Part shown: piece after piece, positions 1-19,197 of the stretch
Numbering within the stretch: position 1 is the stretch's first letter
How the letters are laid out: every line of letters begins with the position of its first letter
Origin: an uncultured virus (IMG/VR IMGVR_UViG_3300021963_006795)
Taxonomy: Duplodnaviria > Heunggongvirae > Uroviricota > Caudoviricetes
Length of the DNA: 20,000 nt
Reading direction: 5' to 3' (one strand)
IMG/VR virus record: IMGVR_UViG_3300021963_006795
Program-made: the position numbers and the translations under genes
Notes under the pieces: model-generated
Databases searched by the model: none
What the model was told of the DNA's origin: nothing
What the model saw: the letters and a program-made list of their open reading frames with translations, nothing else

Positions 1-75
1 AGAGAATGGCAGTGTTGCCGTACTGGTTGTAACCGCTGCTAAAAGAGGCAGGGCTACTGTAAAGAAATTTTGCAC
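1..75 (-). CDS. 5' end of a truncated gene with a signal-peptide-like N-terminus (possibly a secreted or cell-wall enzyme)
   Basis: GTG at 75 opens VQNFFTVALPLLAAVTTSTATLPFS, which runs off the window edge. Hydrophobic N-terminus, downstream of a promoter and a structured leader. Confidence 0.5.
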   Translation of the reverse strand, partial: MQNFFTVALPLLAAVTTSTATLPFS

Positions 76-2808: not shown

Positions 2809-3595
2809 TAATCTTTTTTAGTAATAAAGAAGTTTTAAGAAATGAACTAGGTGAATTGATAATAATATTCGTTCTTGATAAAATTGTCAAATCAATTAAA
2901 GAGTCAATAACACTTTCTTTAGTTCTTTCAACATTATCACACCAAGAAGAATTTTCATTTACTTTCTCAACATAATGATCTTTTTCTCTGATAATAACAT
3001 TATCAAGTTGATTGAATTTTTGTTCGGTTGATTTGTCATCAGACAAGACAAAGAATTTATTTTCTTGTTGATTCTGAATCCATTTATATTCTCTATCAAA
3101 TTTAGGAACAACTGTATCAAAATCAGTTGCTCTTAGATGAACTCCAATAGTAAATTCATCAATTTCATTTTCAACAATAAACTCATTTGACTTATCCAAA
3201 TACAGAGACTTGAAAGGTATAGTTTTACCAGATTCGATTACCAAACTCTCATCCATCCAATCTGGAATCCAGTTATTATTATAAACATAATTTCCATCGT
3301 CCAATATAGGAAGACTTTCAATTCCAGAAAATGAATTAATATTATAATTCTTTTTTCCGACTACAAAATCTTGATGCATAATAAGGATGCAATCAGTAAA
3401 ATTTTGTAGAGGTTCATCTATAACTGCGATTTCTTTATTGTCAAAGATTTCATCAAAAGATAACCTACATGCAGATGTATCTCTCCAATTTACAACTGGA
3501 ATAAGATTGTAGTGATTAGATACTGCAAGACCACCTAGAAGAGTTCCATACCTATTTCCAAACCCACCATCACAATAAATGAATAGTTTGTTCAT
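2801..3595 (-). CDS. Putative fucosyltransferase (GT-B fold, NodZ/GT23/GT11-like)
   Basis: GGFGNR, IGVHLRATD, FFVLSDD, DLTILS...SSF. Confidence 0.75.
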   Translation of the reverse strand: MNKLFIYCDGGFGNRYGTLLGGLAVSNHYNLIPVVNWRDTSACRLSFDEIFDNKEIAVIDEPLQNFTDCILIMHQDFVVGKKNYNINSFSGIESLPILDDGNYVYNNNWIPDWMDESLVIESGKTIPFKSLYLDKSNEFIVENEIDEFTIGVHLRATDFDTVVPKFDREYKWIQNQQENKFFVLSDDKSTEQKFNQLDNVIIREKDHYVEKVNENSSWCDNVERTKESVIDSLIDLTILSRTNIIINSPSSFLKTSLLLKKING

Positions 3596-4966: not shown

Positions 4967-5505
4967 TTAACCACTTGAGCAACGATAATGTCATTAGGTA
5001 CATGACCATTTTCATATGATACCTCATACTTATTATTAATGGCAAATACCCTTTCAACAATCTCTTCTTCAGAAATTTCCCATCCCCAGGTGCTCCCTTT
5101 ATCACCAAAAAGACGACGATCATCAATTAGAAGAGTATTAGTTTTAGTTTTTAATTTAGAAATTTCTTCTAGTTCAAAAGGCAGAGGACATTTATATTGA
5201 CCCTCTACATCTCCATCCCAGTGAGCATCTAACCAGAATGTAGTCTTACCACTAATCTTTTTTAGAACATCACCAAAAACCTCAAAGGTATCACCTTCAA
5301 TAATAGTAACTCTACCTTCTTCGATTTCATTGGCAAATTTTTCTCTATTAAATTGCGCCTTTTCAGGATCAATCTCAATAGAATAGATCTTTTCAAATCC
5401 ACACTCTAGTGCAACTTCAACTGCTTCTCCCCAGAGTGTACCAGTTTCCACAAAATTTTTGTTCTTATATTTACTAAGAACTTCTTTTGACAATGTAGTG
5501 CTCAT
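4963..5505 (-). CDS. Putative SAM-dependent methyltransferase
   Basis: FVETGT..G, IYSIEID, IEGDT, FWLDAH, LIDD.R. Confidence 0.8.
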   Translation of the reverse strand: MSTTLSKEVLSKYKNKNFVETGTLWGEAVEVALECGFEKIYSIEIDPEKAQFNREKFANEIEEGRVTIIEGDTFEVFGDVLKKISGKTTFWLDAHWDGDVEGQYKCPLPFELEEISKLKTKTNTLLIDDRRLFGDKGSTWGWEISEEEIVERVFAINNKYEVSYENGHVPNDIIVAQVVK

Positions 5506-6827
5506 TAAAATCCTCGCTTAATATCAGGTTCAAATGGATAGTTTGATGTAGTCAGGTATTCATGAAGAACTGACTTATATTTTGAATTCTTAAGTGTATG
5601 GTCTAACCATAAAAATTCTTGTACCACATATTTATCCAGATATGGGTAACGGGTTTCGATGCCATAAGATCCAGCAACATACTCTTCTTTTGCTAAGTAT
5701 GAAACCATCGTGCTTCCATAGAAGGACGCCCAAGGGAAAATGGTAGACAAGTCTTCTGGAAATAATCCTCCAAAGTTACTATGAAGAAATTTCTTTTCTC
5801 CATTAAATCCATAATCAGAAAAGATTTCATCGGATCCAGAACCAGAAAGATAAACTTTTTTACCTTCTTTTCTAGCAGTATCACAGATCATAGACAATCC
5901 ACAAGAACCATTATCATCCTGAAGTCGTCTATCAAACTCATTATAATCGCTACTTGAAGAATAGATACGATATTTAAATTCTTCTACATTACGGTTGATG
6001 TAATCACGATATTGCCAACGATTATCCTGCAAGTATTGTCCAGAAGAATTGTCATTAAACATGGAGAATCTTTTGTCCAAGACTTCTTGATTCTCATGTC
6101 CAACTACGGCATATGCTTTATAAGGAACATTCTGTTTGTTCAATTCACATGCAATCCCACCGCTATCATATCCACTTGAAAGTCCAATAAAAATACTTTC
6201 ACGAAGATTCCTAGTGCGCTTACTAACAGAGTTTTCAAATGCAGCAATCCAATCAGAGAAATCTGTTTTGTGCTGAGTTAAATCAAAGTCATATACATTA
6301 AACTGATCAACCTGTTCTCTTGTTTGGAGATTATAAACCTGAGCAATATTTGCATCTAGTTTAGTTACATTAGTAAACCCAAGAGACTTTACTGCAGACT
6401 CATAACTAGCAACTGCTAGTTTCTCTCCGATAGAAAACCATAAAGGTTTGGTTGCAAATACATCCGTAGAAATAATAAACTTTTCATTTTTAAAATCTAC
6501 AAGAGCAATAGCAAACTCTCCATCAAGTTTTTTTACAAACTTATCACCATACTTTTTGTATAGTGGAATCAAACATTCACCATCAGATTTATAATCTCCA
6601 AAATCTTGATAATTATAAATCTGCCCATTATAAACACAGACGATTTGATCGTCATAATCCACGAATGGTTGTTCAGTAAACTCTCCAGTAATTGATAGAA
6701 TATTATGAACGAAAGTATATCCATTCACATCAATACTATTCGTAGAGTCTGGTCCACGAAACTTCATGAAATGATTTGTATATTCCAAATCATCTACTTC
6801 TTTATCGGTAAAAAGAAAACTACACAT
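5505..6827 (-). CDS. Asparagine synthetase-like (AsnB) glutamine amidotransferase, probably glycan-modifying
   Basis: N-terminal nucleophile Cys2 (MCSF), RGPD, NGQIYN, LDGEFA, LSSGYDS PP-loop, SGSGSDEIF, ETRYPYLD. Confidence 0.9.
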   Translation of the reverse strand: MCSFLFTDKEVDDLEYTNHFMKFRGPDSTNSIDVNGYTFVHNILSITGEFTEQPFVDYDDQIVCVYNGQIYNYQDFGDYKSDGECLIPLYKKYGDKFVKKLDGEFAIALVDFKNEKFIISTDVFATKPLWFSIGEKLAVASYESAVKSLGFTNVTKLDANIAQVYNLQTREQVDQFNVYDFDLTQHKTDFSDWIAAFENSVSKRTRNLRESIFIGLSSGYDSGGIACELNKQNVPYKAYAVVGHENQEVLDKRFSMFNDNSSGQYLQDNRWQYRDYINRNVEEFKYRIYSSSSDYNEFDRRLQDDNGSCGLSMICDTARKEGKKVYLSGSGSDEIFSDYGFNGEKKFLHSNFGGLFPEDLSTIFPWASFYGSTMVSYLAKEEYVAGSYGIETRYPYLDKYVVQEFLWLDHTLKNSKYKSVLHEYLTTSNYPFEPDIKRGF

Positions 6828-7501
6828 TATCCCCTTCTATTATGATTGGATGTTACTATTTGTGGCATTATAGAATTACCTCTAATTGTGTTTGCTCTGC
6901 CTGGCATAATGGAAGGTTTAATACCAAGTTGATGACAAACGAAAGGAAAACTAATTTGATCTCTTGATGAGAACATACAGATTTGTTCCCACCACATCAT
7001 ACCCATTCTTTGGGTCAATTCAGTATTCCTTTGCACTCTTACTGGAAGTTCATATAAACCATTGTCCTCAGGATAACACATATCCCTATAGAAATCAAGT
7101 TGATCTTCAATTAGATTGGGATAATCAAATCCAATCTGTTTGACCAACTCTCCTTCTTTATATACACAATTCCTTTCTGGGTGTTTGAAAACTGCAACAT
7201 CACTATCATTTAAATAAGTATCAATTACAGTTTTTGGATCTGCTTCCAAAACATGAGTAGAATCTATCCAGAAATAATAATCATATCCTGGAGCAAATAA
7301 AAAAGGAAGCACCTTATAGATTTTGGCGTTCCTTCTATTTTTATATTTTGGATCTGAAGAAAACTCTGCTGCCTTCTTTACAGACCATCCAGATACATTT
7401 GTTTGTCTATCAGAAAAGGCAAAATAATCTACTCCATCATGAGGTTTGATTGGGAGTAAATTATTTGTACCAATTGATGCTGTTAATACTGCTATCCTCA
7501 T
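6827..7501 (-). CDS. DUF616 (TOD1/MUCI70-like) glycosyltransferase
   Basis: K.LP.LF...YDY..WID, FKHPERNCVY.E, W.EQI...SSRDQISF. Confidence 0.8.
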   Translation of the reverse strand: MRIAVLTASIGTNNLLPIKPHDGVDYFAFSDRQTNVSGWSVKKAAEFSSDPKYKNRRNAKIYKVLPFLFAPGYDYYFWIDSTHVLEADPKTVIDTYLNDSDVAVFKHPERNCVYKEGELVKQIGFDYPNLIEDQLDFYRDMCYPEDNGLYELPVRVQRNTELTQRMGMMWWEQICMFSSRDQISFPFVCHQLGIKPSIMPGRANTIRGNSIMPQIVTSNHNRRG

Positions 7502-8316
7502 ACACGAACTCTAGTCAAATAATATTCCTGACTTTTAATATATCTAGACAATTCATCAGAAGACATTTGTTGCACCCTTTCCCACTCTCTGTTATTACTT
7601 TCCATGTGAGGATTATTGAACCAAGAGTTTTCAGATCTAACATGTTCTAGATGATAGACAGTATCATTGACTCTATGAACTGCATATCCAAGTGTCACAA
7701 ATCTAAAGTATCTCTCAACATCTTCTGGAGCATATGCTACAAAGTTTTCATTTTCTAAACCACCTTCGATGTAAACATCTCGATTAAAAAATTGACAGAA
7801 ACCATACTTAGAATAATAATCTTTGGATTTAGATTCTAAAACTTTTAAATCAAAGTCATTATTCAAAAAGTCTGATACCAATTCATCAGTAGCAAATACT
7901 TGTTTTTGATATTCACCATCACCATAAGGATATACTACATCAGAATTTCCATTCAGGATATTATTATAAGCAAACACATATGATTTAATAGGAAGAATAA
8001 TATCACAATCATAATTTACTACAACTTTTGTAGTAGAGTCCATGATCATATCATTAAGAACTCTTTGACGATGAAATGCAGGTGAGTCTGATTGTTCAAA
8101 TATATGCTTAATACATGAAACATCTTCACAAAATTCAGTGATCTGTGGAAGAGCATCTCTAGCAAAAACAGATTCTTTATCAACTTCCTTTACAATAATA
8201 TTAGTATCAAAGTTGGAAATGATATAACAAAGACTAGTGATAATATTTCTTAGTCTATCAGAACTTTCAATCCTAATAGGAACAATGAAAGTTGCTTCTT
8301 TTAAATCAATTTTCAT
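7498..8316 (-). CDS. Glycosyltransferase (GT2/GT7-like)
   Basis: TFIVPIR...DRLRN, NYDCD, GGLENENF.AY.PED.ER. Confidence 0.8.
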   Translation of the reverse strand: MKIDLKEATFIVPIRIESSDRLRNIITSLCYIISNFDTNIIVKEVDKESVFARDALPQITEFCEDVSCIKHIFEQSDSPAFHRQRVLNDMIMDSTTKVVVNYDCDIILPIKSYVFAYNNILNGNSDVVYPYGDGEYQKQVFATDELVSDFLNNDFDLKVLESKSKDYYSKYGFCQFFNRDVYIEGGLENENFVAYAPEDVERYFRFVTLGYAVHRVNDTVYHLEHVRSENSWFNNPHMESNNREWERVQQMSSDELSRYIKSQEYYLTRVRV

Positions 8317-9058
8317 CAGGATACCTCCGCGTGTCTTTATGTTTTTCAGTTATATACATTAGTTCGTCTCTATTGACTAACCAAGAACCTTCTGGATGTT
8401 CAACTCTCATATCATATTGTACACCAGAACTACTCATTCGATCTGGGTGTTCACGATTTGCAACTAAAATGTCTTCCAAAATAATTGGCATACCATGAGC
8501 GTATCTCATCCGATGATATAAATCAGTATCAATTAGAAGTTTAATGCTTTCATCCATGTGTATTTTTGCCTCATTAAGACAGGCGAAGCATGTTGGACTA
8601 CCTAAAAGATTTCTTCCTTCAAGCATCATATCAGTCCAACGAGGAACCATAGGACGATTAGTAGATTTACCATCTACAGTATGAGCAAATCCATGCATCA
8701 TCCACTTACCATCATTCTCCTCAAACCCTTTATGAATTATTTCTAATGCTTGATCATTTACAAATACATCATCCTGATAGATTAATTTAATAATTCTACC
8801 TTCGGCATTATCAAAAGCACAATTTGTATTCGGCGCTTGCAATCCTCTACCGTTAGGATTTTTTGTATATGTAATTTCAAACTCTTCACTTGCATCTTTA
8901 GCGAAGTTGAAGATCTCATCATCAACACTATGATCAGAAATTACAATATCAAAGTCTTGAAATGTTTGAGTTCTTAGAGAATCAAAGATCTGACTTAGAT
9001 AAAATACTCCTTTACCTTTAAATTCATAAGTGGGAATACATACTGAGATTTCACTCAT
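8306..9058 (-). CDS. Glycosyltransferase family 2
   Basis: ISVCIPTY, SLRTQTFQDFDIVISDHS, YQDD. Confidence 0.9.
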   Translation of the reverse strand: MSEISVCIPTYEFKGKGVFYLSQIFDSLRTQTFQDFDIVISDHSVDDEIFNFAKDASEEFEITYTKNPNGRGLQAPNTNCAFDNAEGRIIKLIYQDDVFVNDQALEIIHKGFEENDGKWMMHGFAHTVDGKSTNRPMVPRWTDMMLEGRNLLGSPTCFACLNEAKIHMDESIKLLIDTDLYHRMRYAHGMPIILEDILVANREHPDRMSSSGVQYDMRVEHPEGSWLVNRDELMYITEKHKDTRRYPDEN

Positions 9059-9855
9059 AGTTTAACCCACCTTTCAGGAATGATATCCTTAGTGTCATTA
9101 TTAGCAGTATATCCACTATCGCCAAACCATCTGGATGGAGCAATAACAGTTCCACGATTCGCTAGCCATGCTCCCCACCAACTGAAAGAACTATTTGCAA
9201 TAATGAAATCATTACACATAGACATCAAACACATATCATAACGATTATCATTTCCTTCTGCAATCAAGAAACGATCATCAGAAAATAGATCTTGTTGTTT
9301 ACACCATTCAGGATCATCAGAGAAAATAATTACTTCTCGATTAGAATCAAAATTACTTAAAGCATTCTGATAATAATCTACACTACATGGAGGATGATCT
9401 TGAGACTTTTGAACATAGTCAGTTCTTCTAACATGTAGAGAAATTGGATTGCTTACTTGAGAAACAAACTCTTCACAGGTTTTTACTATCTCGGATTTAA
9501 ATGAAAAATCTTCACGAATACTATCTGAAACATTTTCAAAGTATTTTTCAGTTTGAAAATATCCAAAAATGGAAACACAATCGGGACAGTTTTTCACATA
9601 GTTCTCATCATATGCAAAAGTCTTTTCTTGATAAACTCCCAATAGATTACCATGACATTCTACATGCCCAATATGTTCAACTCCAGGAAGTTCAAATGTT
9701 TCAAATAATTGATGATCTTTCCATTCATCTTTAAAATCTGAGTGTGGGATACAAAAATTATAATTGTGATATGCTGCAATTCCTCTCAGTGCAGCATACT
9801 GAAACATTTGATTTCCAAGTCTTCCATGAAGACCTAAATGATTAAACCCAATCAT
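9055..9855 (-). CDS. Alpha-1,2-fucosyltransferase (GT11)
   Basis: GRLGNQMFQYA, GYFQTEKYF, SLHVRRTDY, FSDDPEWC, IIANSSFSWWGAWL. Confidence 0.95.
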   Translation of the reverse strand: MIGFNHLGLHGRLGNQMFQYAALRGIAAYHNYNFCIPHSDFKDEWKDHQLFETFELPGVEHIGHVECHGNLLGVYQEKTFAYDENYVKNCPDCVSIFGYFQTEKYFENVSDSIREDFSFKSEIVKTCEEFVSQVSNPISLHVRRTDYVQKSQDHPPCSVDYYQNALSNFDSNREVIIFSDDPEWCKQQDLFSDDRFLIAEGNDNRYDMCLMSMCNDFIIANSSFSWWGAWLANRGTVIAPSRWFGDSGYTANNDTKDIIPERWVKL

Positions 9856-10721
9856 AAGAATTTTAAAATAGTATTGACTCGATTGATATATGTATGATTT
9901 TCTTTTACGAAGATCATCGCCGCTTTCATATCAACTTTACTTTTCTTATCTGCTTCTAGAAGATTTGTATACAGAGTTTCTGGTGTTCCTCCGTAAACAA
10001 CATGATCTCCAAATGCTCTTTTTACAAAAGGAGAGTTGGTTCCAGTAATCCTACCATAACTAATATTTTTAAATATTCTACAAGGAATATATCCACATTG
10101 CAAGTGCCAGTCACTTCTAAAATCTGGACATAAGAATGAAGATCTAATTAGTTTTTTATTTTCCTCATCAGAAGCATTTTGAGTAAATACAGTAAATTCG
10201 ACCTTGTGATTTTGTTCAAGAATATTAGCAAATGATTGTGCCCACCAAGGACCTTGTTCATAGAGCATTCCAATATAATTCAAGGTCTTATTTGAAGAAT
10301 TAAACTTTACTGGATTATTTTCATCAATCTCGTGAGGAAGTAAGTCTGTTCCCCAAGTTTGATAAAGAGTTCTAGTTGATTGATCCCAATATGCAAGATC
10401 TTCAACTTTTTCATGTACTTCTAAACTGGGAAGATAGTTTCCAAGTTTTAATACATTTTCATAAGGAACTCCAGCATCAGTAAAATACTTAGTGTCAATA
10501 TGATGAGTAATATACTTACAATCTTTACGCAAAGGCATTCCTCTCTTTACAGAATCTTCTGTGAAGAAAACAGAATCTGCAAAATCATACTGATTTAAAT
10601 CATCTCTATTATCAATCCAATACACCTCGTATCCAAGATATTGAAATGCTTTATAGTATGAACTATGAATATATCCATGAGTGTGTTCATGGAGTTTGTG
10701 TCCCCAGATAAAAATTTTCAT
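9852..10721 (-). CDS. Putative glycosyltransferase (GT-B, CgeB/Glyco_trans_1_2-like)
   Basis: YIPCRIFK.ISYG and C-terminal HTYINRV. ATG at 10721. Operon context. Confidence 0.65.
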   Translation of the reverse strand: MKIFIWGHKLHEHTHGYIHSSYYKAFQYLGYEVYWIDNRDDLNQYDFADSVFFTEDSVKRGMPLRKDCKYITHHIDTKYFTDAGVPYENVLKLGNYLPSLEVHEKVEDLAYWDQSTRTLYQTWGTDLLPHEIDENNPVKFNSSNKTLNYIGMLYEQGPWWAQSFANILEQNHKVEFTVFTQNASDEENKKLIRSSFLCPDFRSDWHLQCGYIPCRIFKNISYGRITGTNSPFVKRAFGDHVVYGGTPETLYTNLLEADKKSKVDMKAAMIFVKENHTYINRVNTILKFL

Positions 10722-10722
10722 T

Positions 10723-11535
10723 TTAATAATTGATAACATCTAAAACCTGACCTTCTCCCTTTAGAAAAATTTTATCCTGAAGGTCCCATGATTTATTATA
10801 AACCATAATCTTTCCATCTCCAAATTCTGTATTTCTTTTACTTGAAAATGGAGAAAGTCCCACATAATAATTATTTTCTGTAGATGATATTCCACGAATC
10901 CATCCACCAATTGTAATATAATCTCCAGAATTGCTAACTACAGATCCATATCTAGAACTTAATGTATAAATTTTTCCACTTTCTTTCCAAATGCTATGAG
11001 ACTGATATCCCATATTTCTAATTATATTTGTTGGTTGAGAATATAATGAATCAAACTCAAGAATAAAACTACCTTCATTCCAATTATGTGCCAATATGTA
11101 TAACTTATCATCACCATAAACGGAATTAAAATGATAGCAATCTCTGTATTTTACTTGGTCTTTTCTTTCCAAAGGAACCCATCTATTCCAATTCTTTCCA
11201 TTGTAAATTGCTAACGCATCACCATAACTACAAGTACAGACTAAATTATTTTTCCAAAATCCAATTCCATGAAGATCTTGCAATTTAAAACATTTTGGTT
11301 TTATTTCTTTTACAAAATTTAAAGATTTATCAAAAATTAATATCTTTCCATCTTCTTTATCTGGAGTAATTAATTCATTGTTACTATTAATATCACTATT
11401 TCTGGAAGCAACATAAAAATTCCCATCGGGACTTTTTGCTATTCCAAAATATAAACCTTGTCCTCTATGAATTACTTTTATTTCTCCAGATGGATTTACT
11501 AAAAGAATAGATTTTGTTGTTGTGACTAAAAGCAT
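10723..11535 (-). CDS. Predicted beta-propeller protein of unknown function
   Basis: Repeated blade-like segments: YFGIA, DLHGI, HFNSV, SHSI, WIRGI. Confidence 0.6.
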   Translation of the reverse strand: MLLVTTTKSILLVNPSGEIKVIHRGQGLYFGIAKSPDGNFYVASRNSDINSNNELITPDKEDGKILIFDKSLNFVKEIKPKCFKLQDLHGIGFWKNNLVCTCSYGDALAIYNGKNWNRWVPLERKDQVKYRDCYHFNSVYGDDKLYILAHNWNEGSFILEFDSLYSQPTNIIRNMGYQSHSIWKESGKIYTLSSRYGSVVSNSGDYITIGGWIRGISSTENNYYVGLSPFSSKRNTEFGDGKIMVYNKSWDLQDKIFLKGEGQVLDVINY

Positions 11536-11542
11536 TTTTCTA

Positions 11543-12493
11543 TTAATAATTTTCTTTAAACCATTCGTATGTCATTTTCAGTCCCTCAACAATATTAATT
11601 TTGGGACTCCATCCAAGACTCTTAATTTTATCTACATTCATAACTTTTCTCATAGTACCGTTGGGTTTACTTGTGTCCCATATAATTTCACCATTAAATC
11701 CAACAATGTTAGAAATTGTATTCGCCAATTCTTTAATTGTAATATCAATACCAGTACCAACATTAACTATTTCTGGATCATTATAATTCAACATCAGAAA
11801 TAAACATGCATCTGCAAGATCATCAACATGAAGAAACTCTCTCATAGGAGATCCATCTCCCCAGAGGGTTACTGGGTATTGATAAGATCCGCCAAGATCA
11901 TGTCCAATATTATCTTTACCATCATGAAATTTGCGAATTAATGCAGGCAAAACATGAGAACTATTTAAATCAAAATTATCATTTGGACCATATAAATTAG
12001 TTGGCATTAATGAAATTGCATTAAACCCATATTGTTCATGATAAGATTGACACATTTTAATTCCAGCAATCTTGGCAATCGCATATGCATCATTAGTTGG
12101 TTCCAATGGACCAGTCATTAACTGATCTTCAGTAATTGGAATGTTAGCGTGTTTGGGATAAATGCATGATGATCCTAGGAAAAGAAGTTTCTTAACACCA
12201 TGTAAATGAGAAGATTTAATAACATTTGTTTGAATTAAAATATTATCAGTAATAAAATCTGCTTTATATTGACTGTTTGCCATAATGCCGCCAACTTTTG
12301 CAGCAGCAAGAAACACATATTCTGGTTTATGAATAGTGAAAAGATTTTCTACTGCCTCTTGATTTGTTAGATCACACTCACTACTAGGAATGAGAAGTAA
12401 ATTATTATATCCCTCTTCTCTTAATTTTCTTACAATTGCAGATCCAACAAGTCCATTGTGACCTGCTACGAAAATTTTAGAATTACTGTCCAT
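11543..12493 (-). CDS. fcl: GDP-L-fucose synthase
   Basis: [55 protein letters not shown] at 12493. Confidence 0.97.
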
Positions 12494-13484
12494 AAATGCA
12501 CATGTCCTCAACTAATTGTTCAAATGAAATTTTAGGTTCCCATCCAAGATTTTGTTTTGCTTTTGTAGGATCTCCTAGAAGAGTTTCTACTTCTGCAGGT
12601 CTAAAATATTTTGGATCTACAGCAATAACTTGATTACCACTATTTGTATCATATCCAACCTCTTTTAAACCTTCACCCTTCCACGCAATTTTCATACCAA
12701 AATAAGGTGCTGCTTTTTCAACAAATTCTCTAACAGAATATTGTTCTCCAGTAGCAATAACATAATCTTCTGGAGTTTCTTGTTGAAGCATTAACCACAT
12801 TGCTTCAACATAATCTTTTGCATGGCCCCAATCACGCTTAGCATTAAGATTACCTAAGTATAAAATATCCTGAAGACCGCAAGAAATCTTAGATAAACCC
12901 TGCGTAATCTTACGAGTTACAAAAGTTTCTCCACGACGAGGAGATTCGTGATTAAATAGAATTCCCGTACATGCATACATTCCATAAGATTCACGGTAGT
13001 TTTTAGTCAACCAGTATGCATAAACCTTTGCACATCCATAAGGAGAACGAGGATAAAATGGAGTGGTTTCTGTTTGAGGAATTTCCTGAACAAGACCATA
13101 CATCTCTGATGTAGATGCTTGATAAATTTTACAAGTTTTTTCCATCCCTAGAATTCTAACTGCTTCAAGAATTCTAAGTGTTCCTAATCCATCCACATTT
13201 CCAGTATATTCAGGAAGTTCAAAAGAAACTTTTACATGACTTTGTGCAGCAAGATTATAAATCTCATCTGGTTTTACTTTCTGAAGTACATGAAGTACAT
13301 TTCCAGAATCTGTCAAATCTCCGTAATGGAGATTAATTTTTTTGTAGATATGATCAATACGATGAGTATTGATCAGAGATGCTCTGCGAACAATTCCGTG
13401 AACTTCATAACCTTGTTCTAGTAAAAGTTCTGCTAAGTATGATCCATCCTGCCCTGTAACACCAGTAATTAATGCTCTTTTCAT
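12483..13484 (-). CDS. gmd: GDP-mannose 4,6-dehydratase
   Basis: [66 protein letters not shown] at 13484. Confidence 0.98.
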
Positions 13485-13497
13485 ATTTAATAACAAC

Positions 13498-14116: not shown

Positions 14117-14359
14117 TCACTTACTCAATTGTGCAATAAGTGCTTCTAATCTATTCTCAAGTGCAGTAATTCTATCATTAATAGTAGATTCTTTTCTAGG
14201 AGGTAGATCAGGAAGTTCTTCATTATTTAACTTTGAAGATCCTCCTCCACATGGAACATGAGATCTTGATTCTAAAGCAGCAAGTCTTCTTTCAACTTCC
14301 AAGTCAATTTTAGGAGAGTAAGATGAAATATCTGAAATGATCGGTTTTCTTGTTGCCAT
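14117..14359 (-). CDS. Hypothetical protein with two short coiled-coil segments
   Basis: ORF track. Internal repeat RLAALE / RITALE. Confidence 0.7.
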   Translation of the reverse strand: MATRKPIISDISSYSPKIDLEVERRLAALESRSHVPCGGGSSKLNNEELPDLPPRKESTINDRITALENRLEALIAQLSK

Positions 14360-14386
14360 TTTAATTTAAAAATTTTGAACTAATAT

Positions 14387-14393
14387 TATTTAG
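14387..14393 (-). promoter_or_regulatory. Putative T4-type late promoter (CTAAATA) upstream of the glycan operon
   Basis: CTAAATA lies just after the terminator and about 28 nt before the ATG at 14359. The motif is short and the DNA AT-rich, so support is weak. Confidence 0.4.
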
Positions 14394-14421
14394 AAAATAA
14401 AAGGGACTTTAAAGTCCCTTT
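14394..14421 (-). terminator. Rho-independent terminator (palindromic, possibly bidirectional)
   Basis: AAAGGGACTTTAAAGTCCCTTT followed by TATTTT. Confidence 0.75.
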
Positions 14422-14429
14422 ACTCAGTT

Positions 14430-14529
14430 GCAGGCTCGCCACCAATTCTTTAACTGGAAATTGGAAACCAGGCGGGAGTAACCTCCACATCCGCACCACT
14501 TGCCTTTTTAAGGAATGGCAAGAAACCTA
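14430..14529 (-). ncRNA. Structured RNA with two tandem H-type pseudoknots and UGGYG motifs (probably related to the cyanophage wcaG/manA Rfam motifs)
   Basis: AGG-UUU-CUUGCC-AUU-CCU-UAAAAA-GGCAAG-UGGUG and CUGG-UUU-CCAAUU-U-CCAG-UUAAAG-AAUUGG-UGGCG, with a GGAG-GUUA-CUCC hairpin between them. Lies upstream of gmd/fcl. Confidence 0.7.
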
Positions 14530-14739
14530 TTTTGTTGCAGAAACAAAATTATTAATAGTCTCCGCTTGTTCTAGAACTTGATTAAGTGTTGGAAACTCTG
14601 GATAATCCATTGATACTTCTTTTTTCTCATTTTCATTCCAACAACGAGCAGTATCATACTCTATACTAAACTGATCGTTTAGCATATTATATGCTTGTTT
14701 AAAAATTTCAAAACGAAGTTCATAAGGTGTTTTGGACAT
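14527..14739 (-). CDS. Small phage protein (KTPYELR...PTxxxVxxxAxxIxxFVS)
   Basis: ORF track. GGAG RBS preceded by CA repeats. Confidence 0.8.
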   Translation of the reverse strand: MSKTPYELRFEIFKQAYNMLNDQFSIEYDTARCWNENEKKEVSMDYPEFPTLNQVLEQAETINNFVSATK

Positions 14740-14770
14740 AATTAATCTCCATGTGTGTAATGTGTGTGAA

Positions 14771-14863
14771 TAGGGTCATTTGACTCCACCAGTACTTTTA
14801 AAGTCTCTCCGTGACTATGAGGGTTGCTCTCGACCAGGGCGCTTTTAATGTCATCCCGAGACA
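14771..14863 (-). ncRNA. Structured RNA with two tandem hairpin/pseudoknot units (manA/wcaG-like candidate)
   Basis: UGUC-UCGGGAU-GACA-UUAAAAG-CGCCCUGGUCG and AGUC-ACGGAGA-GACU-UUAAAAG-UACUGGUGG, with a compensatory U-A to A-U change between the units. Confidence 0.65.
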
Positions 14864-14868
14864 ATTAC

Positions 14869-15087
14869 TCAAGCACTTACTTGTTCATTTTCAAAATCAT
14901 AAAGAAGATTATCAATTAGAATCTCATAATCATCCATAGGATCATTTGTAAATTCTACCCCAATGGATTCATAATAACGCTTTACCTTTTTATAAAGTTT
15001 TGGGTTTTTTACATCCAGATAAAAGTCTCCATTTGCAGCACCACGAAGAGTACTTAGGTCTTTTTTAAATTTAGAAGAAAGTGTCAT
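14869..15087 (-). CDS. Hypothetical cyanophage-type protein, 72 aa
   Basis: ORF track. Directly downstream of a consensus promoter. Confidence 0.8.
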   Translation of the reverse strand: MTLSSKFKKDLSTLRGAANGDFYLDVKNPKLYKKVKRYYESIGVEFTNDPMDDYEILIDNLLYDFENEQVSA

Positions 15088-15110
15088 TGGTAATGTTTGT
15101 TGACTTTTTA

Positions 15111-15139
15111 AGTATAGGAAAAAATATCCAGTTTGTCAA
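15111..15139 (-). promoter_or_regulatory. sigma70-type promoter
   Basis: TTGACA (15139-15134), 17 bp, TATACT (15116-15111). Confidence 0.75.
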
Positions 15140-15153
15140 GTCTTGTGGACAGT

Positions 15154-15816
15154 TTAAGATTTGACCACTGGATAAAAATTTTTCAGATGATTTCCATTTA
15201 AAAAATCTGTCTTCATATTGTTATAGGGTGTTGGATCCCATTCTTTTGGTTTCCAATGCACATACATGTTTCTGTAGTATTCCCCATTAAAAGGAGTTTC
15301 TCTACCATGAACACAAAGACTTTCATAAAGCAACATATCACCATCTTCAAAATATACTTGATGATGATTATTATCATGATCGTAAAAATCTAAAGGCCAA
15401 TTTTGATTTGATTTTTGATCAATATAAATTATACAACTTATAATATGAGTATCAATACGATCTCTATGAAGATGAAGCACAGAATTTTTTATGTAACTTC
15501 TAATTCCATATCCCCAAGATCTTTCTAATTTTACTTTAGACCATTCTTCTACAATTGGAGTTATTTCATCATAACATAAATCAAATAAATCTTGAGAAAT
15601 TTCATTTCTATAATAATAAGGTTTAATACTATTTTTTACAGATATACCACCACAAACTACAGTTTTATATTCTTTTGAATACTCATTTTCATTTACTTTT
15701 TCGGAAAATTTTGCAGTTGAATATACTTTTTTTATTTCAGAATATAAATTTTCAGGTATTTTTACTTTCAAAAAAGGAACTTCATTGAATTTAGGTGGTT
15801 TTGTTTTATCGTTCAT
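15154..15816 (-). CDS. 2OG-Fe(II) oxygenase-like protein
   Basis: GIRSY...LHLHRD (HxD), WPL, GDMLLYES..VHGR (distal His). Confidence 0.8.
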   Translation of the reverse strand: MNDKTKPPKFNEVPFLKVKIPENLYSEIKKVYSTAKFSEKVNENEYSKEYKTVVCGGISVKNSIKPYYYRNEISQDLFDLCYDEITPIVEEWSKVKLERSWGYGIRSYIKNSVLHLHRDRIDTHIISCIIYIDQKSNQNWPLDFYDHDNNHHQVYFEDGDMLLYESLCVHGRETPFNGEYYRNMYVHWKPKEWDPTPYNNMKTDFLNGNHLKNFYPVVKS

Positions 15817-16965: not shown

Positions 16966-17058
16966 TAGGAGTGGAGGGAGTCGAACCCCCAACCGCGCAC
17001 TAATCTGGTGCATACAGAAGGTATAAGCTTCTCGCTCTGCCAATTGAGCTACACTCCC
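16966..17058 (-). tRNA. trnI: tRNA-Ile(UAU) with a long variable arm
   Basis: GGGAGTG/CACTCCT-A acceptor stem, GCTC/GAGC D stem, AGAAG-CTTATAC-CTTCT anticodon arm, GCAC-CAGATTA-GTGC variable arm, TTCGACT T loop. Confidence 0.85.
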
Positions 17059-17093
17059 AAAAAAAGCATAACGATTATGGTGCTTCGTTATGT
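17059..17093 (-). terminator. Terminator-like hairpin directly upstream of tRNA-Ile
   Basis: CATAACGA-AGCACCATAA-TCGTTATG followed by C and a T7 run. Confidence 0.55.
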
Positions 17094-17185
17094 TGTGTAT
17101 AAAGATTAATTAACCAAATATCATCTTCAGTTAATTCCTTTTTTTCTTCAGTTTTTTCTAAATTTTCAACTTCCACCTGTTCCAT
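17075..17185 (-). CDS. 36-aa acidic peptide (not in the ORF track)
   Basis: MEQVEVENLEKTEEKKELTEDDIWLINLYTQHNEAP. Starts a few nt after the oxygenase stop. Confidence 0.55.
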   Translation of the reverse strand: MEQVEVENLEKTEEKKELTEDDIWLINLYTQHNEAP

Positions 17186-17191
17186 TTTTTA

Positions 17192-17884
17192 TTAACGAAG
17201 TTTAGGTCCTAACATCCAAGATACCAGGGATATTCTTTTACCACTTTTTATTTTAGTAACTCTATGGGGAACTCTTGAATCAAAGATAATCATTGTTCCT
17301 TTCTTTTGTGGTGGCATAACAACTCTACCGTGATAATCCATTATTTGGAATTTTCCACCTTCATATTCTTCTGGATCACTTAATAAAAGAGATGCACTTA
17401 ACTTTCTGGTATATTTTCTATCTGTGGTTGTTCCATAGTCAGAGTGCCATGTATAATGACCTTTTTGATCATATGTAGTAACTTGAATTCCATTCAAATA
17501 GTTTAAATCATATTCCCACAATTCTCTATTTGCAATATTAAAATAATGAGAGAATATTGATGAAATCCAATGCTGTTCATACCACCATGATACTCTAGAA
17601 TCTCTAAGTTTTACTATTGTTTGTCCTTCCATTGCATTAGGACCAACTTCAGAATCTTGAAATTGATCTTTTGGAATATTATCATATTCTTTAATAATAA
17701 GATCTACAAGATCACTTGGAATTGCTTGTTCAAAAAATGCAACTGGACTATTTACAATTAAATGCTCTTCTGCTCTTGGTGGAGGAGGAAGTTCTTGACC
17801 CATTTTATTAAATGCATCCAAAATAATTTCTCTTGGATCAATAATTTGTTCATCCTCATTTAGTAGTAAAACTTCTCTTGCCAT
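17192..17884 (-). CDS. 2OG-Fe(II) oxygenase (PKHD/prolyl-4-hydroxylase-like)
   Basis: Q.T.Y...GHYTWHSD, RKLS, YEGG, IFDSRVPHRVT, GKRISLVSW..GP. Confidence 0.9.
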   Translation of the reverse strand: MAREVLLLNEDEQIIDPREIILDAFNKMGQELPPPPRAEEHLIVNSPVAFFEQAIPSDLVDLIIKEYDNIPKDQFQDSEVGPNAMEGQTIVKLRDSRVSWWYEQHWISSIFSHYFNIANRELWEYDLNYLNGIQVTTYDQKGHYTWHSDYGTTTDRKYTRKLSASLLLSDPEEYEGGKFQIMDYHGRVVMPPQKKGTMIIFDSRVPHRVTKIKSGKRISLVSWMLGPKLR

Positions 17885-17903
17885 ATTAATTTAGTTAAAC
17901 GAA

Positions 17904-17977
17904 TCGGAGTGATAGGATTTGAACCTACGGCATCCCGCTCCCAAAGCGGGTGCTCTACCAAACTGAGCTACACTCCG
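17904..17977 (-). tRNA. trnP: tRNA-Pro(UGG)
   Basis: CGGAGTG/CACTCCG-A acceptor stem, CCCGC-TTTGGGA-GCGGG anticodon arm, GGTTCAAATCC. Confidence 0.95.
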
Positions 17978-17991
17978 TTTGGTTGTATTTA

Positions 17992-18020
17992 AATATATCA
18001 TATAATTATTTTTTTGTCAA
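17992..18020 (-). promoter_or_regulatory. sigma70-type promoter upstream of tRNA-Pro
   Basis: TTGACA (18020-18015), 17 bp, TATATT. Confidence 0.6.
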
Positions 18021-18166
18021 CTATTCCATCCCAAATATTTTTCTATGGGATCTTTTCTTGTTTTAACAATTTCAACTGCTCTTTTATAAAACATATTATC
18101 AGTATTACCAGATTTTTCAAAGGTCTCTTTAATTTTGACCCAGTTTTCGTAAGTGTGTTGATCCAT
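18017..18166 (-). CDS. 49-aa hypothetical phage protein (not in the ORF track)
   Basis: MDQHTYENWVKIKETFEKSGNTDNMFYKRAVEIVKTRKDPIEKYLGWNS. Same strand as all other genes. Confidence 0.75.
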   Translation of the reverse strand: MDQHTYENWVKIKETFEKSGNTDNMFYKRAVEIVKTRKDPIEKYLGWNS

Positions 18167-18261
18167 CTTAAAATGAAGATAGTACAACTATATACTATTA
18201 AAAGAACTTTCAGTGTCAACAATTGTGTTCATATTGTAACACTGTTTAAGAAATTGTTAAG

Positions 18262-18344
18262 CGGAAAGAACAGGAATCGAACCTGCGAAGGTGTTACCCC
18301 CAGCCGCTTTCAAGGCGGTGTCCTCGACCAACCGGACTCTTTCC
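18262..18344 (-). tRNA. trnS: tRNA-Ser(UGA)
   Basis: GGAAAGA/TCTTTCC-G acceptor stem, CCGC-CTTGAAA-GCGG anticodon arm, long variable arm, GGTTCGATTCC. Confidence 0.85.
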
Positions 18345-18348
18345 AATA

Positions 18349-18606
18349 CTAACGAATTTCAAAGTCTAGTTTACGAACTTTTCTTTGTCTTCTTGCTTCT
18401 TGCCAAGCAATATCTTCTGAAGTTAAAAACTCTTTTCTATTTGTTTCTTTATAAGAGTTTAACATAACAACATTGGATAAATCAACCGCAGTTATTTTGT
18501 TTCCTCTGACAGTTGCCATATTTGGACAACCACAAGAAACTGTTTTATTTTCTATTGCTTGCATTTCTTTATTACAAGACTTACATCTTATCTTAATAGG
18601 TTCCAT
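18349..18606 (-). CDS. Small Cys-rich (zinc-ribbon-like) phage protein
   Basis: CKSC...CGC motif. ATAAATA late-type motif upstream. Confidence 0.8.
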   Translation of the reverse strand: MEPIKIRCKSCNKEMQAIENKTVSCGCPNMATVRGNKITAVDLSNVVMLNSYKETNRKEFLTSEDIAWQEARRQRKVRKLDFEIR

Positions 18607-18645
18607 AATATACTCATAAGAGATATTTTATTTATCACTTTAAAA

Positions 18646-18718
18646 TGGAGAATAGGGGACTTGAACCCCTGACATCCTGCTTGCAAAGCAGGCACTCTAC
18701 CAACTGAGTTAATTCCCC
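18646..18718 (-). tRNA. trnA: tRNA-Ala(UGC)
   Basis: GGGGAAT/ATTCTCC-A acceptor stem with G3:U70, CCTGC-TTTGCAA-GCAGG anticodon arm. Confidence 0.95.
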
Positions 18719-18720
18719 AA

Positions 18721-18792
18721 CTCCACAACCTGGGATCGAACCAGGGACCAGTCGATTAACAGTCGAATGCTCTACCGCTGAGCTATTGTGGA
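18721..18792 (-). tRNA. trnN: tRNA-Asn(GUU)
   Basis: TCCACAA/TTGTGGA-G acceptor stem, CTGTTAA anticodon loop, GGTTCGATCCC. Confidence 0.95.
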
Positions 18793-18797
18793 ATAAA

Positions 18798-19014
18798 GGA
18801 AGTTACTGGACTTACACCAGTTCAAAAGGCATTGTCTGCTTGTCTCGATTCTTTGACTTAACTTCCGTGATGGAGTAAGTGTGATATACCTCATAAGGAT
18901 ATAACAGAGACTTACTCTCTATCTTAGAAAAGGAGATCTCTTGGGCGAACCCGCAGGATCACTTCTCTAAATTTGCTACGGCATTCTGGTTTATCTTTCC
19001 AGTGCAAGTAGCAA
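18798..19014 (-). ncRNA. Multi-hairpin non-coding RNA of about 215 nt between tRNA-Gly and tRNA-Asn
   Basis: Four consecutive stems (TTGCTAC/GTAGCAA, TTAGAGAAG/CTTTTCTAA with a GGG-TTCG-CCC tip, GAGTAAG/CTTACTC, GGAAGTTA/TAACTTCC). No ORF in the track. Confidence 0.65.
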
Positions 19015-19015
19015 G

Positions 19016-19086
19016 AGCGAGCAACGAGGATCGAACTCGTGATTCCAACTTGGAAGGATGGCGTGTTACCGCTACACTATGCTCGC
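19016..19086 (-). tRNA. trnG: tRNA-Gly(UCC)
   Basis: GCGAGCA/TGCTCGC-T acceptor stem, CTTCCAA anticodon loop, GTTCGATCC. Confidence 0.95.
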
Positions 19087-19091
19087 AATAA

Positions 19092-19124
19092 GACAATTAT
19101 AAAGTAATTGAGTATAATTGTCAA
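19092..19124 (-). promoter_or_regulatory. sigma70 promoter embedded in an inverted repeat
   Basis: TTGACA (19124-19119), 17 bp, TATAAT (19101-19096). Inverted repeat GACAATTATA...TATAATTGTC. Confidence 0.75.
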
Positions 19125-19197
19125 CAGGCAAGGTAGGACTCGAACCTACAATCGACATCTTAGAAGGATGCTGCATTATCCATTATGCTACTTGCCC
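19125..19197 (-). tRNA. trnR: tRNA-Arg(UCU)
   Basis: GGGCAAG/CTTGCCT-G acceptor stem, GCATC-CTTCTAA-GATGT anticodon arm, GGTTCGAGTCC. Confidence 0.95.

Follow-up and report, generated by a model that had tools for sequence, protein, structure and literature searches.

Layout of the locus

The 20,000-nucleotide (nt) stretch of viral DNA analysed here (the window; IMG/VR record IMGVR_UViG_3300021963_006795) has Synechococcus T4-like phages as its best DNA relatives and carries on its minus strand four small pseudoknot-forming RNA units, arranged in two pairs among small open reading frames (ORFs). Read 5′ to 3′ on that strand, the locus begins with a sigma-70-type early promoter-like site (15111..15139; TTGACA-17-TATACT, 11 of 12 consensus matches) upstream of a 72-amino-acid (aa) ORF (ORF72, 14869..15087) of PHROG family phrog_552, function unknown. 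A TATAAT promoter-like box, read by eye, occupies the corresponding site before the ORF72 homologues of phages S-SM2, Bellamy and S-SRM01. Behind ORF72 lie the short-form units 1 (14829..14866) and 2 (14784..14819), followed by an apparently inserted cassette of ~240 nt (14529..14768) that comprises a CA-rich leader (14752-14768), a GGAG (14747-14750) and a 70-aa ORF without a family (ORF70, 14527..14739). The stop codon of ORF70 overlaps the first stem (S1) of unit 3 and supplies the first bases of that unit. The second pair is a canonical wcaG RNA (14428..14530; RF01761), made up of unit 3 (14494-14528), a P2 hairpin (~14470-14493), unit 4 (14437-14471) and the tail UGGCGAGCCUG. Downstream of unit 4, an intrinsic-terminator-like hairpin of 9 pairs with a T-run (14400..14421) is overlapped by a weak promoter-like site (14385..14413; TTTAAA-17-AATAAT, 9 of 12 matches), and the first gene past the terminator encodes an 80-aa coiled-coil-like protein (ORF80, 14117..14359; phrog_35121). 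Every part of the promoter-to-terminator module described in a first-pass annotation of this DNA was found in place on the minus strand; that these parts form one transcription unit is suggested by the consensus promoter and terminator sites.

Units 3 and 4 form a canonical wcaG RNA

Each unit folds as an H-type pseudoknot whose third loop is A-rich; UGGY comes next and, in most cases, a small hairpin, much as the first-pass annotation had drawn it. The UGGY stands after every unit, and a helix begins immediately behind it. That annotation had also named wcaG as an orphan cyanophage motif, and for units 3 and 4 the pointer was right: together they match Rfam wcaG (RF01761) over model positions 1-98 of 98, with 84.4 bits against a cut-off of 42 (E 7e-15). 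The cultured phages S-SM2, Bellamy and S-SRM01 also carry wcaG, with scores of 93-101 bits. The hallmarks of wcaG, hairpins each followed by UGGYG with a loop pseudoknot, are present in all four units. The setting is also that of wcaG, with cyanophage-type relatives and with gmd, an fcl-type epimerase and glycosyltransferases downstream.

Comparative evidence supports the fold. Among 51 distinct long units (the form of units 3 and 4), chosen solely for a paired second stem (S2) and fixed spacing and not for S1, pairing in S1 reaches 98%, and both sides vary in three of the four S1 pairs, with pair types that include UA 30/CG 13/GC 4/AU 3 and GC 30/AU 11/UA 10. The covariation score is 0.725, compared with 0.26 in shuffles. 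S1 covaries in all unit types and S2 in units 3 and 4, which bears out both pairings first proposed for the latter two. Since G-U pairs are present and the model matches (97 + 42) fall on the coding strand without exception, the fold is at the RNA level. The nested folding energy of wcaG together with the terminator is modest (z = -1.83). A MAFFT alignment of whole wcaG copies misplaced the first unit and was left out of the counts. As a separate candidate, a closing helix that would join the 5′ flank of unit 3 to the 3′ tail was rejected, since inspection by eye revealed no consistent co-change in relatives.

A short-form variant in units 1 and 2

A search of 14300-15250 against Rfam at E <= 10 with permissive filters returned no match, wcaG included, on units 1 and 2 (14771-14866). 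These units fall short of the wcaG gathering cut-off and are filed here as a variant from the same building block, not as an Rfam member. On the comparative evidence below, they are best called a double-short variant of the wcaG architecture (pseudoknot, UGGY, small hairpin) that is not itself an Rfam family. Unit 1 has S1 UGUC/GACA, the loop UCGGGAU, the linker UUAAAAGCGCC and CUGGUCG, and its small trailing hairpin GAG...CUC (14819..14831) reads from the sequence as a P2-type output helix. Unit 2 has S1 AGUC/GACU, the loop ACGGAGA, the linker UUAAAAGUA and CUGGUGG, and its trailing hairpin GGAGUC-AAAU-GACCC (14773..14787), likewise read from the sequence, is a connector typical of array position 2.

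Model R1, built from 85 distinct short units, matches exactly two sites in the window, unit 2 with 52.2 bits (E 3e-15) and unit 1 with 42.8 bits (E 2e-12), while the next best site in the 20 kb scores 7 bits. Across loci chosen through ORF72 alone, the same model finds 97 sites in 83 loci, 97 of 97 on the coding strand. In S-SM2, Bellamy and S-SRM01, the same elements follow the ORF72 homologues, and their 4-bp hairpin carries compensating changes. S1 is 99.1% paired in 53 distinct unselected matches, with the types AU, CG, UA and UG, and the covariation score of this set was reached by 0 of 500 shuffles.

The first-pass annotation had joined S1 of these units to a CGG:CUG contact between the loop and the downstream strand. 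S1 stands, as it covaries, whereas the CGG:CUG contact never varies on both sides, one-sided C-to-U changes apart, and the covarying contact lies in another register. Loop position 2 pairs with the linker G/A (CG 66, UA 19, 0 unpaired; CG 44/UA 9 in the unselected matches), and loop position 5 pairs with the base preceding the linker G/A (GC 13, AU 12, UA 3, 0 unpaired; GC 9/AU 8/UA 4 in the unselected matches), the second pair being confined to short units with an 11-nt linker. An invariant GG lies between these two covarying loop positions. The helix after the short knot also covaries in relatives, as judged by eye (GGG/CCC, GGU/ACC, GGA/UCC), and UGGUGGAG(U/C)C is present in 75 of 219 distinct short-unit 3′ contexts.

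Three further candidates were set aside. Loop position 7 and linker position 5 give G-C 28, U-A 14 and other 43, which is no consistent pair. Sites of the CsrA type, with a GGA loop, are out since loop position 5 varies and covaries with the linker. The folds of hepatitis delta virus-like or other self-cleaving ribozymes would need extra helices for which the unit has no room, and no Rfam match to them was found.

Four-unit arrays in related phages

Searches of viral contigs, one by pattern and two by synteny, added 280 further loci. In 512 kb of related loci, a strict scanner detects 267 short (S) and 297 long (L) units, compared with 0 short units, 5 long units and no arrays in shuffled copies. 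The arrays take the forms S, LL, SS, SSLL, SLL, SSL, SL and LLL, with a few others. Among them are 21 distinct contiguous four-unit SSLL arrays, none with an ORF inside; the first-pass annotation had asked whether ORF70 is constant between the RNA pairs, and in these arrays it is absent. The connectors occur in the order UGGUCG, UGGUGGAG, UGGUGCGG, UGGCG in 15 of the 21, which is the order of the window. At the junction between units 2 and 3, the contiguous arrays of loci L145 and L107 read ...GACCCUAUU-AGGUUUC.... From these comparisons we infer that units 1 and 2 belong to the same array as units 3 and 4, being its upstream half, and that the ORF70 cassette has separated the two.

Tandem Repeats Finder at score 30 returned 0 rows, and hence no tandem sequence repeat in the array. 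The best unit-to-unit match is between units 1 and 2 (24 nt, 75% identity), and no repeat is detected between units 3 and 4. The units are structural repeats and not sequence repeats. Loci L086 and L202 carry an intermediate unit with a 4-bp S1 (GCCC/GGGC) and a 5-bp S2, then C-UGGUGCGG, which bridges the short and long forms.

In four loci (L094, L100, L201 and L222) a short unit begins 0-1 nt past the 3′ end of a transfer RNA (tRNA) gene, tRNA-Ile or tRNA-Met, as predicted by ARAGORN; this is 4 of 223 distinct tRNA-unit pairs.

Terminators, start codons and genes behind the arrays

Two kinds of context follow the arrays. Of 75 arrays whose last unit is long, 71 have a terminator within 110 nt (23 more were left out of this count for too little flank), whereas arrays of short units only abut ORF starts and, in 70 of 72 cases, have no terminator. 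The terminator of relatives is typically part of a composite resembling PeSL, a promoter/terminator motif of T4-like phages that was reportedly described by Arbiol in 2010. The pattern TTGNNN-16..18-TANNNT occurs behind 72 of 98 distinct arrays, with the -35 box TTGNNN in the terminator loop and the -10 box TANNNT after the T-run, usually as TTGCAT-17-TATAAT or TTGACA-17-TATAAT. Of the 45 such composites in the ORF72 loci (404 kb), 43 lie behind wcaG-type units (11 judged by eye). Examples are found in L003 (3360-3400) and L086. In the window (14385-14421) the hairpin at 14421-14400 is kept and the promoter, TTTAAA-17-AATAAT, is a mere 9/12 match. The 5′ arms of the terminators show a slight preference for pairing with their own aptamer over others (-9.47 versus -9.05 kcal/mol, permutation p 0.003).

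Behind short units, 58 of 219 distinct contexts have an AUG no more than 4 nt past the end of the hairpin after UGGUCG, and in 48 of these 58 the 5′ half of the hairpin holds a Shine-Dalgarno-like purine run (GGGAG-like). The ORF behind such hairpins usually encodes a 75-aa membrane protein (phrog_2318, function unknown). Membrane ORFs of 75-77 aa follow a single short unit in L006 (2994-3218), L028 (3206-3430) and L003 (~2990-3236), and are absent from the window.

Where an array ends in a long unit, the first downstream ORF of 80 aa or more encodes a nucleotide-sugar enzyme in 43 of 58 distinct cases: 32 epimerases/dehydratases, 9 cytidylyltransferase-like proteins, 1 nucleotidyl transferase and 1 mannose-6-phosphate isomerase. 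The window's own ORF80 was left out of this family search, being already without a Pfam family.

ORF70 is a portable cassette

The first-pass annotation had proposed the small co-transcribed proteins as partners of the RNA. For ORF70 this finds no support, given the 21 distinct uninterrupted arrays and the occurrence of the cassette without units in 34 of 55 contexts. ORF70 has 122 relatives in viral contigs. Its 55 distinct upstream contexts, classified by eye, hold pseudoknot units (21), a tRNA gene (22), a promoter (11) or another sequence (1), and an ACACACA-type leader stands before the gene in 55 of 55. The order of a ACACACAnnACACACA leader, GGAG and AUG is kept in all of them whatever lies upstream (14752-14768 in the window; loci L205-L284). 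The CA-rich leader appears to travel with ORF70 and may be a translation enhancer. Since the leader and ORF70 stand behind units, tRNAs or promoters alike, the two are a portable cassette that landed inside the array by chance and no partner of the RNA. In L228, L233, L241, L247, L263 and other loci, a small conserved hairpin, CUCUGAACCUUCGGGUUCUUUA, lies between a tRNA 3′ end and the ORF70 leader.

Relatives of ORF72 are encoded by 591 of 600 pattern matches in T4-like cyanophage contigs, and ORF72 or a neighbour gene (phrog_481) lies upstream in 85 of 120 loci chosen by the RNA pattern alone. The AlphaFold2 model of ORF72 is all-helical (mean confidence score, pLDDT, 90.3) and has no fold match in the PDB at E <= 0.001, the best hit being at E = 4.1. 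For ORF72, ORF70 and ORF80, Pfam and PADLOC give no family, and PHROGs and the ESM Atlas give just function-unknown families or viral hypothetical clusters. ORF72 is strongly syntenic with the arrays, and a functional tie to the RNA may exist.

Gene neighbourhood and environmental sequence

Downstream of the array, a GDP-mannose 4,6-dehydratase (PF16363, 521 bits) and an NAD-dependent epimerase of the GDP-fucose synthase type (PF01370, 226 bits) occupy 11543..13496 on the minus strand and form the head of a same-strand glycan gene block of ~9 kb that runs to ~5505. The block (5505-13496, minus strand) encodes gmd, the fcl-type epimerase, a GT11 fucosyltransferase, a GT2 enzyme, a TOD1/MUCI70-like transferase and an asparagine-synthase-like amidotransferase. 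A 2-oxoglutarate (2OG)-Fe(II) oxygenase lies between ORF80 and the glycan enzymes. In S-SM2 and Bellamy, the homologue of ORF80 sits between the short pair and wcaG.

Upstream of the module lie an O-fucosyltransferase-like gene and seven tRNA genes. The seven tRNA matches span 16966-19197 (minus strand); the one at 18262-18344 is weak (30.8 bits against a cut-off of 29) and the one at 16966-17058 is long (93 nt). A 220-aa ORF at 15154-15816 (minus strand) carries the PHROG label ferrochelatase (E 2e-11) and a sub-threshold Pfam match to 2OG-Fe(II) oxygenase, which leaves the label doubtful.

Four metatranscriptome runs hold 4-8% of the words, as contigs, and these cover the conserved parts of relatives, both RNA pairs included (85% likeness). 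In run X3, four contigs tile 14433-14866; they come without strand or ends and are no proof of transcription. A scan of bacterial genomes for TGGTGCGGATGG-N6-18-CCGCC was uninformative: among the matches listed, 0 of 120 had an adjoining unit and the median GC content was 0.67, as for chance matches.

Possible functions of the array

We read the locus as one four-unit regulatory array of wcaG-family RNA, carried on an early phage transcript and active in cis, with a probability of roughly 0.4 on the sequence evidence. Attenuation, which the first-pass annotation had kept as a caveat, thereby becomes the preferred reading. Each unit comprises a compact H-type pseudoknot (S1, S2 and the A-rich loop 3), the invariant UGGY and an "output" helix, which is a plain hairpin inside the array and, at the array end, either a terminator (long units) or a Shine-Dalgarno-like GGGAG hairpin before a start codon (short units). 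In this model, the folding state of the knot would set whether the output helix forms, and would itself depend on a small ligand or, with lower probability, on a protein factor. In the window, units 3 and 4 would gate read-through at the terminator (14421-14400) into ORF80 and the GDP-fucose/glycan genes, while arrays that end at a start codon would control translation. The units have a conserved aptamer fold with covariation, as riboswitches do, and this covarying fold, the two kinds of candidate expression platform and the association with functionally related genes are classic riboswitch-type marks that favour cis-regulation.

Several observations weigh against this reading. The terminator of relatives is fused to a strong promoter (72 of 98), the window's copy alone being weak, so the downstream genes could be transcribed without passage through the RNA. 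The preference of terminator arms for their own aptamer amounts to 0.4 kcal/mol, with a native median rank of 28 of 87, and yields no clear exclusive antiterminator. Of 151 genomes sampled from the host family (that of a Cyanobium genome), 0 yielded wcaG, which would be unusual for a metabolite sensor; the same search does find wcaG in the window's own 44-kb viral record. A literature search found no ligand or mechanism for wcaG. The nested folding energy of units 1 and 2 is unremarkable (z = +1.45), so the support for these units is comparative. The gene association may partly mirror conserved synteny among related phages, as ORF72 or its neighbour accompanies 85 of 120 loci. Finally, units placed directly behind tRNA 3′ ends would suit a role in processing or stability better than a bacterial-type switch. 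Because of the fused promoter, the weak antiterminator, the absence from sampled hosts and the tRNA-adjacent units, explanations by RNA processing and by factor-dependent antitermination stay serious.

The stronger of these, which we consider possible though less probable than cis-regulation, is that the array serves RNA processing or stability. Viral pseudoknots are known that resist exonucleases, and by analogy the knots here might punctuate early polycistronic transcripts, stopping a 5′-to-3′ exonuclease or marking and protecting cut ends. They would then shield the following ORF or combine with the terminator to produce a stable small RNA. The tight packing of units between a stop and the next start speaks for such a role, with the ORF70 stop overlapping unit 3 and an AUG within 4 nt in 58 contexts. 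So do the four loci with units 0-1 nt behind tRNA 3′ ends, the restriction of the units to phage among the sampled sequences (0 of 151 host-family genomes), the promoter fused past the terminator, which would make the array the 3′ end of a transcript, and the want of a convincing antiterminator. On the other hand, merely 4 of 223 tRNA-unit pairs are adjacent, and neither the position of wcaG before nucleotide-sugar genes (43 of 58) nor the fixed order of four different connectors is explained. In a form to which we would give about the same, distinctly lesser weight, the ~36-45-nt pseudoknot-UGGY block would be no metabolite sensor at all; it might be an autonomous viral module that punctuates transcripts by blocking decay or directing end processing, or its UGGY might pair with the tRNA 3′ RCCA in a T-box-like manner. 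Were this so, the four-unit array and its terminator would yield a stable phage small RNA.

An unlikely alternative is antitermination that depends on a factor or is directed at the polymerase, in which the array would bind a phage or host protein, or RNA polymerase itself, and so permit read-through into the glycan operon. The put RNA of phage HK022 and the EAR element of Bacillus may offer analogies. A terminator follows nearly every array that ends in a long unit (71 of 75), the array precedes a ~9-kb same-strand glycan block, no clear switching helix is seen, the units were not found in the sampled host-family genomes, and upstream there is tight synteny with ORF72 and its neighbour gene (85 of 120), all of which would be expected here. 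Antitermination does not account for the short-unit arrays, which lack a terminator in 70 of 72 cases, and ORF72 has no recognisable RNA-binding fold or family.

The first-pass annotation favoured a trans-acting, antitoxin-like decoy, in which the transcript would be cut into single pseudoknots that bind co-transcribed proteins or soak up a host defence RNase; although tandem pseudoknots with A-rich single strands, a terminator that would yield a discrete RNA, and metatranscriptome contigs from four libraries that contain relatives of both RNA pairs (no proof of transcription) would fit it, we regard it as highly improbable and without positive support, since Pfam and PADLOC reveal no toxin-like gene or defence family among the three small ORFs, the 17 Rfam matches at E <= 10 include no manA, ToxI, antiQ or CptI, tandem sequence repeats are absent (between units 1 and 2, just 24 nt match at 75%), individual units differ in their pairings, with the fold conserved and the sequence not homogenised, and ORF70 occurs without units in 34 of 55 contexts.

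Under the preferred cis-regulatory reading, the locus is relevant to the control of the glycan-modifying genes that cyanophages carry. Since 2010 wcaG has stood as an orphan structured RNA, and the ~36-nt short form with its covarying tertiary pairs offers a small construct for ligand or nuclease tests. Half of the finding, units 3 and 4, is already catalogued; the other half, units 1 and 2, is a new variant form.

Comparison with known systems

Type III antitoxin RNAs (ToxI, antiQ and CptI) resemble the array in their tandem pseudoknot-forming units with A-rich single strands. They differ in that the array has no adjacent toxin gene, no near-identical repeats and no Rfam or defence-family match. 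Pfam and PADLOC reveal no ToxN/AbiQ/CptN-type endoribonuclease among the three small ORFs, the other neighbours being oxygenases and sugar enzymes, and where type III antitoxins consist of near-identical direct repeats, the best unit-to-unit match here is 24 nt at 75%.

The short unit appears topologically similar to the preQ1-I riboswitch, with a 4-bp hairpin, loop bases that pair 3′ of an A-rich strand and a length of ~36 nt, and the tandem use of units recalls the glutamine riboswitch of cyanobacteria and cyanophages. At E <= 10, Rfam gives no match to preQ1-I-type or glutamine riboswitch families.

PeSL, as presented in the text of Comeau 2014 (PMC4122927), is a stem-loop fused to a sigma-70-type early promoter in T4-like phages. 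The composite of our relatives shares with the PeSL of that text the stem-loop and early promoter, the 17-nt spacer and the location in a variable region near small ORFs and tRNAs. The PeSL papers, to judge from their text, cover coliphage, Vibrio and related T4-likes, and the word "cyanophage" is absent from the 2014 main text (PMC4122927).

The closest relation is to wcaG itself, which the text of Weinberg 2010 (PMC2864571) presents as a riboswitch candidate from marine metagenomes and T4-like cyanophages, located ahead of exopolysaccharide or high-light genes. In the passages of later cyanophage genome papers that name it (PMC9964418, PMC9602691), wcaG is merely annotated. Units 3 and 4 are a full-length member in the same T4-like cyanophage setting, before exopolysaccharide-type genes, as far as the text of the 2010 paper describes it. 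The published seed alignment (PMC2864571, Additional file 5) includes short-form first units alongside long-form ones, UGGUGGAGUC tails and adjacent tandem copies on one scaffold, and the consensus drawing (PMC2864571, Additional file 6) labels a pseudoknot. Compared with this published form, units 1 and 2 are both short-form and are missed by the Rfam model even at E <= 10, and the array as a whole comprises four units with a gene cassette between its halves. The covarying loop-linker pairs of the short form also depart from the PMC2864571 alignment, where GGG is paired with CCC. The almost constant downstream composite of terminator and promoter seems to go unmentioned in Weinberg 2010 (PMC2864571). 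What this analysis adds is the repeated pseudoknot block, its ~36-nt short form with tertiary pairs of its own, the fixed four-unit order, the two kinds of output helix and the promoter-fused terminator.

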